IMG/VR virus record: IMGVR_UViG_3300027744_000080
Coordinates: 1-30,737 of that record
DNA from: a virus
Taxonomy: Duplodnaviria > Caudoviricetes
Direction: 5' to 3' (one strand)
Length of the DNA stretch: 30,737 nucleotides
The translations under genes were made by a program, and so were the position numbers. The notes beneath the pieces are model-generated. The model searched no databases and was not told where the DNA came from. It saw only the letters and a program-made list of their open reading frames with translations. This document shows positions 3 through 1,350 of the stretch, in pieces. Each line of letters opens with the position of its first letter. Position 1 is the first letter of the stretch.

Positions 3-272
3 CTGGTGACCGGTCTAAACTGCCAATCTTGCGGGTCTGGTGAGATGGTGCAAGCTGCCCACACCAATTGGGGCGGTCACAAAGGCAGGGGCATAAAGGC
101 TGATGACAACCTGGTCGCTGCTTTGTGCCTCAGATGCCACTATGAGATCGACCAAGGATCAAAGTTAAGCAAAGAAGAAAGAATAGAGAAGTGGCAGAAA
201 GCCCACAGCAAGACTGTTAATTGTTTGCGATCTGTTTGGCCTGTTGACATTCCTTTACCGGCTGATCTATAA
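3..272 (+). CDS. 3' part of an HNH/His-Me finger Zn-binding nuclease-like protein (DUF1364/DUF968/Ref-like nin-region protein); 5'-truncated by the window edge
   Basis: CxxC (CQSC)...AAH...GxGIKADD...LCxxCH motif pattern; frame is open to the window start. Confidence 0.7.
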   Translation: MVTGLNCQSCGSGEMVQAAHTNWGGHKGRGIKADDNLVAALCLRCHYEIDQGSKLSKEERIEKWQKAHSKTVNCLRSVWPVDIPLPADL

Positions 273-273
273 T
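244..273 (+). promoter_or_regulatory. sigma70 promoter with perfect consensus hexamers
   Basis: TTGACA at 244-249, 18-nt spacer, TATAAT at 268-273 (overlaps the upstream stop codon); predicted TSS ~279-281. Confidence 0.8.
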
Positions 274-308
274 TTGCTTGTCAAGTGCCGACACACAAGA
301 CAGACATG

Positions 309-381
309 AGGCCATTTTCTCATGCGTTACCCTTTAGAGGGGACTGATGTGTCGGCATCAGAACGCAGTAGAAAGTGGCTT
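309..381 (+). ncRNA. c4/CI-like antisense RNA (three-way junction) with complementary target boxes upstream (286-295) and downstream (384-399)
   Basis: Closing stem 309-328/362-381 with a 2x2 internal loop; hairpin CCCT-TTAG-AGGG 330-341; hairpin CTGATG-TGTCGG-CATCAG 344-361; 348-357 is the exact reverse complement of 286-295. Confidence 0.6.
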
Positions 382-394
382 TTCTGCGTCCAGT

Positions 395-610
395 GCCGAT
401 TGCTGATGACGAAACAATGCACCAATGTCGTGGTGGCTATCGAGTGAAGCGATGCGCTTACTGACAAGCCAGCGCGAGAACTTGCTAGGGGTATCTCAGG
501 AACAAGGCAAACGTGGTGATGTGGAGCTTAGGCCATGCTTGATGGTCGCCTTGGAAATTGAACCTAGCCCTTATGGGTGCAGTAGTCGTAAAAGATGGCT
601 GAAGTCGGGG
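395..610 (+). ncRNA. putative large structured RNA / leader element
   Basis: Nested helices 396-401/603-608, 409-412/586-589, 418-423/576-581, 428-438/467-477, 447-451/455-459, 484-489/563-568, 503-508/548-553, 531-536/542-547. Confidence 0.45.
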
Positions 611-669
611 GTATCATCCGCTTGGCTTGTCCTATGGGAAATGCTAAAATTAAGCATGGGAAACTTAAA

Positions 670-1350
670 ATGATCCGTATCTTTGGTGGCTACGACCCTA
701 GGGAAGCTGTTGGCTTTCATGTGTTTTGTCAAAGCCTAATTGAGCGAACCAAAGAGCCAATAGCGATCACTCCCTTTTTTGGCAAGCAGCGGGACGGCTC
801 AAACGCCTTCATTTATCAAAGATTCCTAGTCCCGTATTTCACAGGGTTCAAGGGCAAGGCAATCTTCATGGATGCCTCAGACATGCTGATGCTGGGCGAC
901 ATAGATGAGCTAAACAAGCTATTTGACCCCACAAAGGCTGTACAGGTCGTTAAACACGACTACAAGACCCAGCACCCTAGAAAGTACATTAACACGCCTA
1001 TGGAGGCCAAGAACGAGGACTACCCAAGGAAGAACTGGTCAAGCCTGATCCTGTGGAATTGTGAGCATCCTCGGAACAATGTGTTAACCCCAGACTACAT
1101 TGATGACCACAGCGGCAGTGACTTGCATCGGTTTACCTGGCTGCCCGATTCCCTGATTGGTGAGCTGCCTAAACAATGGAATGTGCTTGTAGGAGAGCAA
1201 GACAACCCAAATGCCAAGATAGCGCACTACACTCTGGGCATACCGGAGTTTTTTCATTACAAGGACTGCGACCACAGCAAGCCTTGGCACAGCACTAAAA
1301 GCAGAATGCTTAACGGCCTCATTAACATGAAAGAGCAAGATGGCGACTGA
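670..1350 (+). CDS. GT-A fold glycosyltransferase (GT8-like)
   Basis: IFGGYDPRE, RFLVPY, AIFMDASDML (DxD-like), VQVVKHDY, YPRKNWSS, WNVLV, HYTLG motifs; ATG 670 preferred over 595 because the conserved motif starts there. Confidence 0.8.
   Translation: MIRIFGGYDPREAVGFHVFCQSLIERTKEPIAITPFFGKQRDGSNAFIYQRFLVPYFTGFKGKAIFMDASDMLMLGDIDELNKLFDPTKAVQVVKHDYKTQHPRKYINTPMEAKNEDYPRKNWSSLILWNCEHPRNNVLTPDYIDDHSGSDLHRFTWLPDSLIGELPKQWNVLVGEQDNPNAKIAHYTLGIPEFFHYKDCDHSKPWHSTKSRMLNGLINMKEQDGD

Follow-up and report, generated by a model that had tools for sequence, protein, structure and literature searches.

In ColE1, an RNA forms a persistent hybrid, RNase H cuts that RNA, and Pol I is primed. In phages with C4 or CI RNAs, the regulated genes are icd/ant or kil. 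Replicons that lack ORFs and are under antisense control have precedent, and RNA-initiated, antisense-controlled replication has been described for the plasmids ColE1 and MRB (PMC3035462). The small RNA I of MRB is described as repressing only its own replicon, which creates compatibility groups (PMC3035462). Among structured motifs linked to plasmid replication regions, ARRPOF lies within a region reported to be sufficient for rep-less replication (PMC5737381).

We analyzed a freshwater phage record of 30.7 kb (30,737 nucleotides; the window), in which the end of an HNH gene at 6-272 is followed by a stretch without genes and then by a long operon that runs rightward and encodes glycosyltransferase, terminase, portal, capsid, tail, and lysis proteins. 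The gene-free stretch contains a promoter, a C4/CI-like antisense switch, and a large structured RNA that we designated class A (Table 1). The cassette at 255-638 is, with a probability of roughly 0.6, an antisense-gated, RNA-dependent origin of phage DNA replication that would work like ColE1 RNA II/RNA I without being a member of that family. The cassette sits in the slot of an initiator gene and therefore probably needs no initiator protein to start replication of the phage DNA.

Table 1. Features of the cassette and its surroundings (window coordinates)
Feature	Position	Strand	Description
Sigma70-type promoter	244..273	+	12/12 consensus; -35 = 244-249, -10 = 268-273; predicted start ~279-280
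Exchangeable cassette	255..638	+	Flanks 244-254 and 639-653 common to sister L603
5' hairpin with variable specificity box a (286-295)	279..302	+	Box covaries with loop a'
C4/CI-like three-stem module	308..385	+	Long stem 308-326/362-382, two apical hairpins, antisense loop a' 348-357, U-tract 380-385
Class A large structured RNA	391..634	+	~245 nt, no conserved ORF; HMM family, alignment A1
5' domain	397..453	+	Hairpin 420-423/432-435, loop pairs 427-431/449-453 (pseudoknot); likely 397-403/436-442 helix, one central mismatch
Invariant hairpin	454..475	+	Stem 454-457/472-475; loop to 3' end, 463-471/623-631 = 9-bp pseudoknot
Middle part	476..567	+	Hairpin 476-482/490-497, loop pairs 485-489/563-567 (pseudoknot); stem 503-508/548-553; inner hairpin 531-535/543-547; kissing 516-520/613-617; probable 2-bp contact 525-526/538-539
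3' part	569..631	+	Hairpins 569-571/575-577, 580-587/594-601; G-rich hairpin ~606-620, loop kissing 516-520; 3' strand of 463-471 pseudoknot
Weak second promoter-like site	622..650	+	9/12, ahead of late genes; family spacing not conserved

A -10-like box was also seen by eye upstream of the C4-like module in the homologous loci inspected. No conserved downstream promoter was found across the class A family, and a consensus scan of the window found no minus-strand promoter-like site near the class A element. The GC skew of the window tracks the coding strand and hence is uninformative. A scan with Rfam 15 gave no gathering-score match anywhere in the window and only a chance match at E ≤ 10 in 200-750, and 20 homologue loci gave only chance matches at E ≤ 1. 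Neither the window nor those 20 loci had a covariance-model match in Rfam 15 to ARRPOF, PAGEV, GEBRO, GOLLD, ROOL, raiA, RNase P, tmRNA, introns, or small ribozymes. At 654-669 the window, like L001 and L002, lacks the DUF5856 (Dps-like) gene that close relatives have between the RNA and the glycosyltransferase gene.

Homologues were gathered with protein-neighbor and pattern scans and then by HMM search, which returned 220 matches (113 distinct sequences) among 465 loci. These counts are lower bounds because the searches used exact patterns and HMMs, without a calibrated covariance model of the full RNA. For alignment A1, 90 full-length sequences were reduced to 50 below 93% identity (mean pairwise identity, 66%; minimum, 48%). 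The annotated phages searched contained no real match to the class A element, plasmids in PLSDB contained no match to the window element, and only 2 of 17 pattern matches in GTDB genomes were true. Contigs from RNA libraries covered parts of 305-577 in seven of eight runs, and the piece listed for the eighth covers 569-746; the runs were selected for holding the stretch and speak to presence rather than to strand, ends, or level, and DNA carry-over is possible.

An earlier note on this DNA had drawn eight nested helices here. All eight can be written in the window, with one mismatch in 428-438/467-477, but only three hold across the 50 homologues. The helices retained in A1 are 484-489/563-568 (90% of cells paired), 503-508/548-553 (98%), and 531-536/542-547 (89%). 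The alignment does not support 396-401/603-608 (53-58%), 409-412/586-589 (44%), 418-423/576-581 (69%), 428-438/467-477 (64%), or 447-451/455-459 (78%, with no two-sided change), and for that structure as a whole 74% of cells pair. The joint stability of the eight-helix span is within chance compared with shuffles (z of -1.34 for 390-615, and -1.0 to -1.9 over 390-615 and 395-610). The region nevertheless has a strongly conserved structure, though with another, pseudoknotted fold. The region is thus a real conserved RNA structure, different from the fold first drawn.

When covariation in A1 was ranked without supervision, Watson-Crick pairs came out on top, crossing pairs included. The revised structure comprises 63 pairs, with 95.7% of cells paired, compared with 32-38% in slid controls, and 47 of the 63 pairs have two-sided changes. 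Because the structure was read from the same sequences that scored it, a tree-based null was run in addition, with our own script and 40 null replicates rather than with R-scape. Fifteen pairs reached E ≤ 0.05, all of them within the revised model and spanning three pseudoknots (430-450, 464-630, and 486-489/563-566). For example, in the 5' domain the E values were <0.025 for 430-450, 0.025 for 421-434, and 0.05 for 420-435. The 463-471/623-631 pseudoknot is 98.7% paired, with two-sided changes at four pairs and E < 0.025 for 464-630. A fourth pseudoknot, 516-520/613-617, is 94.7% paired, and all five of its pairs have two-sided changes. Support for two further contacts came solely from anchored tests: 397-403/436-442 formed 5.2 of 7 pairs with its own partner versus 4.3 in crosses, and at 525-526/538-539 the partner was present in 49 of 50 sequences, including all 8 non-CG variants. 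In the alignment, just 71-78% of cells pair in the 606-620 stem, and the A-rich junctions at 498-502 and 553-562 are near-invariant. The fold consists of nested helices crossed by at least four pseudoknots, and the total for the 245-nt RNA is four to six. Helix cells on the plus strand include 302 G-U versus 35 A-C, with several G-U pairs near-invariant. This excess fixes the strand, and RNA is therefore favored.

The reading frame 425..673, which had been raised as an alternative object of conservation, is not conserved. There is no open plus-strand frame across the core in 29 of the 50 homologues, core lengths differ modulo 3, and no conserved ORF was found across the class A family. The suggestion that the region is an undescribed structured phage RNA, rather than a tRNA, an intron, or a known riboswitch, agrees with the lack of Rfam matches. 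A hammerhead-like word at 403-415 that served as a search seed was rejected because its columns vary across the family. One homologue (L327) lacks about 85 nt of the RNA core, which may be a natural deletion or an assembly error.

The C4-like module upstream is stable (z of -6.0 for 305-385), and 15 of its 18 consensus pairs have two-sided changes in 19 homologues. Box a and loop a' are perfect complements over at least 8 nt in 64 of 74 homologues (mean of 9.7 nt versus 5.5 when shuffled), with 46 distinct box a sequences in the 74. Several apparent exceptions have another RNA or a small ORF in between, which places the module farther upstream. In their variability these box/loop pairs resemble incompatibility determinants. 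In energy folding of the window, the a:a' helix is predicted as long as the long stem lacks its 3' strand; once that strand has been transcribed, the terminator-like form prevails, and we infer that the module switches between these two states.

A second, downstream target of the antisense loop had been proposed at TGCCGA (394-399), where antisense binding and folding of the large RNA would exclude one another. This interlock is not borne out: the 6-mer is almost fixed while the antisense loop varies, and the best downstream match to the loop averaged 5.3 nt versus 5.1 nt in the shuffled control (64 homologues). The proposed target is a chance match. No consistent second antisense target was found elsewhere in the genome either, with 2 of 16 genomes at P < 0.05. 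In four loci (L363, L403, L321, and L676), the C4-like module is separated from the large RNA by an extra structured insert of 150-200 nt that is closed by a long stem. The inserts of L363 and L321 also have a T-arm-like hairpin, and ARAGORN found no tRNA in L363, L403, or L321. In L134 (~345-360), the antisense loop is missing as part of a 33-nt gap in the C4-like module, which may be a natural deletion or an assembly error.

The switch and class A RNA occurred as a single copy per record in 31 of 31 records and were gained and lost together; four complete sister genomes lack both. Their neighbors vary: upstream lie Cro-like genes, initiator pieces, NinB/NinG, spanin, or HNH genes, and the genes that follow encode terminase small subunit, HNH, capsid, tail, holin, recombinase, or DUF5856 proteins. 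The insertion contexts number at least eight, replication loci among them. In sister phages (L013, L015, L022, L042, L044, L045, L047, L055, and L060), two small noncoding modules recur directly behind the late promoter, ahead of a terminator-like hairpin; their ends are conserved and their interiors vary.

The flanks that border the cassette in the window enclose a 266-aa DUF1376 initiator gene in the sister L603. Likewise, when gene content was compared, a DUF1376-type initiator was present in the sisters that lack the element. In L603, a small structured leader of another kind and a small ORF lie upstream of the DUF1376 gene (L603:9975-10060), and G011 and G015 have similar small-ORF sequence ahead of their initiators. 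Four near-complete class A genomes had no match to an initiator, primase, helicase, or polymerase (ORFs scanned plus 16 tblastn queries), and three others had only a short C-terminal initiator piece, within 0.7 kb of the RNA. It is possible that phages with class A alone have a small initiator that is not recognizable as such. In 8 of 15 near-complete class A genomes, a full initiator or a primase/helicase is encoded as well, at a distance of 2.7-26 kb; in genomes that keep replication genes, class A would be a second or newly gained origin or an RNA with another job.

Two further scans yielded 159 loci. The entire early-right region, bounded by the leftward recombination genes on one side and the late genes on the other, is covered in 61 of these (51 contigs). 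Ten of the spanning contigs have class A, all without an initiator match. Another 14 have only a 117- to 145-aa initiator piece, each with an RNA of class B or C, a co-occurrence that is partly by construction because the profiles of these two classes were built from loci found through the short initiator. One contig (L528) has neither the full-length initiator nor the short piece; by eye it has a switch of this kind, and its RNA has the middle domain in common with class A (E of 0.002). Within this one phage family, every spanning contig without a full-length initiator carries a structured RNA (25 of 25; 24 by profile and 1 by eye), whereas class A, B, or C was found in none of the 26 with a full-length initiator. 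The L519 genome carries a full initiator. In a glycosyltransferase tree of 39 of the spanning contigs, class A forms one clade with the L603 contig (row L518) as its sister, and the 10 class A contigs of the window lineage therefore reflect one swap event. Class C requires six changes on the tree, and all states together require eight versus a minimum of 3. RNA and initiator states switch back and forth over the tree.

A scan with the short initiator protein, which aligns to the C-terminal domain of phage replication proteins, found 80 loci. The protein is under 170 aa in 79 of them, and 75 have an adjoining structured RNA, often directly after cro. Class B RNA covaries, lies behind the same kind of C4-like switch, and by eye has a 5' domain in common with class A. 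It adjoins the short initiator piece at L664-L670, L672, L675-L679, L682-L684, L693-L697, L704, L709, L710, L715, L717, L719, L721, and L733. Class C is a conserved stretch of ~270 nt with no ORF; it lies at the replication locus, follows a C4-like switch, and has no HMM similarity to class A (L671, L673, L680, L681, L692, L700, L705, L707, L713, L737, and L739). There are also a variant D (E of about 1e-8 to 1e-10 to class A), a variant E that shares the middle domain, and one unclassified stretch; these lie at L701:1417-1652, L711:4574-4798, L528:about 2240-2480, and L698 upstream of 1512. None of nine loci with the other RNA classes or the L603 leader had an Rfam match at gathering score. 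We would place even odds on a broader proposal, in which many abundant tailed phages of fresh water have as their replication origin a member of a superfamily of antisense-gated multi-pseudoknot RNAs (at least classes A to E, with domains in common). Such RNAs would replace the initiator or its origin-binding half, and the fast-evolving 10-nt switch would set incompatibility groups of coinfecting phages.

If the cassette is a replication origin, transcription from 244-273 would first form the a:a' helix, delaying the terminator-like long stem, and on a fresh genome read-through would yield the 245-nt RNA. As the short a'-bearing RNA accumulated, it would pair in trans with box a of new transcripts, freeing the long stem and U-tract to form and turning synthesis off. 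We propose that this shut-off in trans would therefore provide copy control as well as incompatibility between phages with the same box. The folded RNA would keep its own 3' end on the template as an R-loop, which host RNase H, Pol I, and the PriA primosome could convert to a fork, as for ColE1 RNA II. With the related RNA classes, the short protein that has only the initiator C-terminal domain may help helicase loading.

The best surviving alternative, which we nevertheless regard as improbable, is that class A is a trans-acting, ornate noncoding RNA encoded by the phage, a GOLLD/ROOL-like moron (for example, a protein or tRNA binder or an antidefense decoy) timed by the C4-like switch and only indirectly linked to the initiator. 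The constant single copy, the many unrelated gene contexts, the near-invariant junction bases, and the insertion of other small RNA modules at the same sites are what such an RNA might show, as is coexistence with full replication genes in 8 of 15 genomes. However, this alternative explains neither the same-slot swap with the initiator and the 25/25 versus 0/26 exclusion nor how class A-only genomes replicate.

The chance is considerably smaller that the RNA acts in cis in the manner of HK022 put, as a processive antiterminator that the antisense attenuator licenses for the long downstream operon. This idea from the earlier note is kept only as a minor rival. The RNA does lie directly behind a promoter and U-tract stem, its own terminator is not evident, and it has the same orientation as the next gene at the loci inspected, heading a 28-kb operon in the window. 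Yet sister phages with the same late operon lack it, there is only one copy, and antitermination does not account for the exchange with initiator genes.

An equally slim chance attaches to another of that note's suggestions, that the fold acts as single-stranded DNA, as a primase or primosome assembly site exposed by transcription. A DNA site would likewise explain the link to replication, and plasmid motifs have been suggested as potentially acting in that form (PMC5737381). The G-U excess and the near-invariant G-U pairs described above argue for RNA instead, as do the dedicated promoter, the antisense-like RNA switch and U-tract module upstream, and the presence of the element in RNA libraries, where DNA carry-over is possible. 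Least probable is a selfish or catalytic RNA (self-cleaving, self-splicing, or DNA-cleaving) moving between phage promoters. At least eight insertion contexts and invariant core bases would suit it, but no Rfam ribozyme or intron matches, there is never more than one copy, the inspected empty sites hold other modules rather than a precise empty junction, and none of the joints listed for the RNA-library contigs spans the element.

If the cassette is an RNA-dependent origin, a tailed phage family that repeatedly swaps a protein initiator for a 0.4-kb RNA cassette would extend RNA-initiated replication to viruses. This would account for phage genomes with no or headless replication genes and would supply many naturally orthogonal, compact origins. 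Whatever its function, the 245-nt RNA is a strong candidate for structure determination, since it has four to six pseudoknots and belongs to no Rfam family. Judged from sequence comparison, class A is an uncatalogued multi-pseudoknot phage RNA without an Rfam family. We found no description of it in a literature search that left aside the PMC5737381 supplement and the PMC10690425 alignment archives. PMC10690425 describes unnamed candidates of 29-151 nt from the same database as the window, and fragments of class A may be among them, which would amount to a partial prior listing.

Several described systems share individual properties with this locus. GOLLD and ROOL are also large, intricate phage-associated noncoding RNAs (PMC5737381), but class A is much shorter and does not match them, and tRNAs were found in just 1 of 20 genomes scanned. 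ARRPOF, PAGEV, and GEBRO are structured motifs of 223-349 nt linked to plasmid replication regions (PMC5737381). As characterized in that report, they are plasmid-borne, come from other phyla, and are described without a C4-like switch (PMC5737381), and they have no Rfam match here.

The switch resembles P1/P7 C4 and P4 CI (Rfam C4, RF01695), in which a same-strand, three-stem RNA of ~77 nt has a variable specificity loop whose complementary target lies upstream (PMC5320573, PMC4825925). Unlike these, the locus has no second downstream target (seqC/a2) and no Rfam C4 match, and its cargo is a structured RNA instead of icd/ant or kil genes. With neither a downstream target nor an Rfam match, the switch therefore works like C4/CI without being filed as a member.

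As replicons, the MRB (pB1067-type) elements of Vibrionaceae plasmids are comparable in being Rep-less and ~500 bp (PMC3035462). They differ in that their RNA I is counter-transcribed and has two hairpins, and the window element has no PLSDB match. ColE1, with its RNA II preprimer and RNA I antisense, offers an ORF-free origin, a long structured RNA under a short antisense RNA, and specificity set by loops (PMC3035462). In contrast, the antisense loop here is on the same strand, in a C4-like module, and is not a counter-transcribed RNA I. The RNA is ~245 nt with at least four pseudoknots, shows no similarity by sequence or in Rfam, and belongs to a tailed phage, and priming is presumed. The class A cassette is likely a new variant of the RNA-based replicon.
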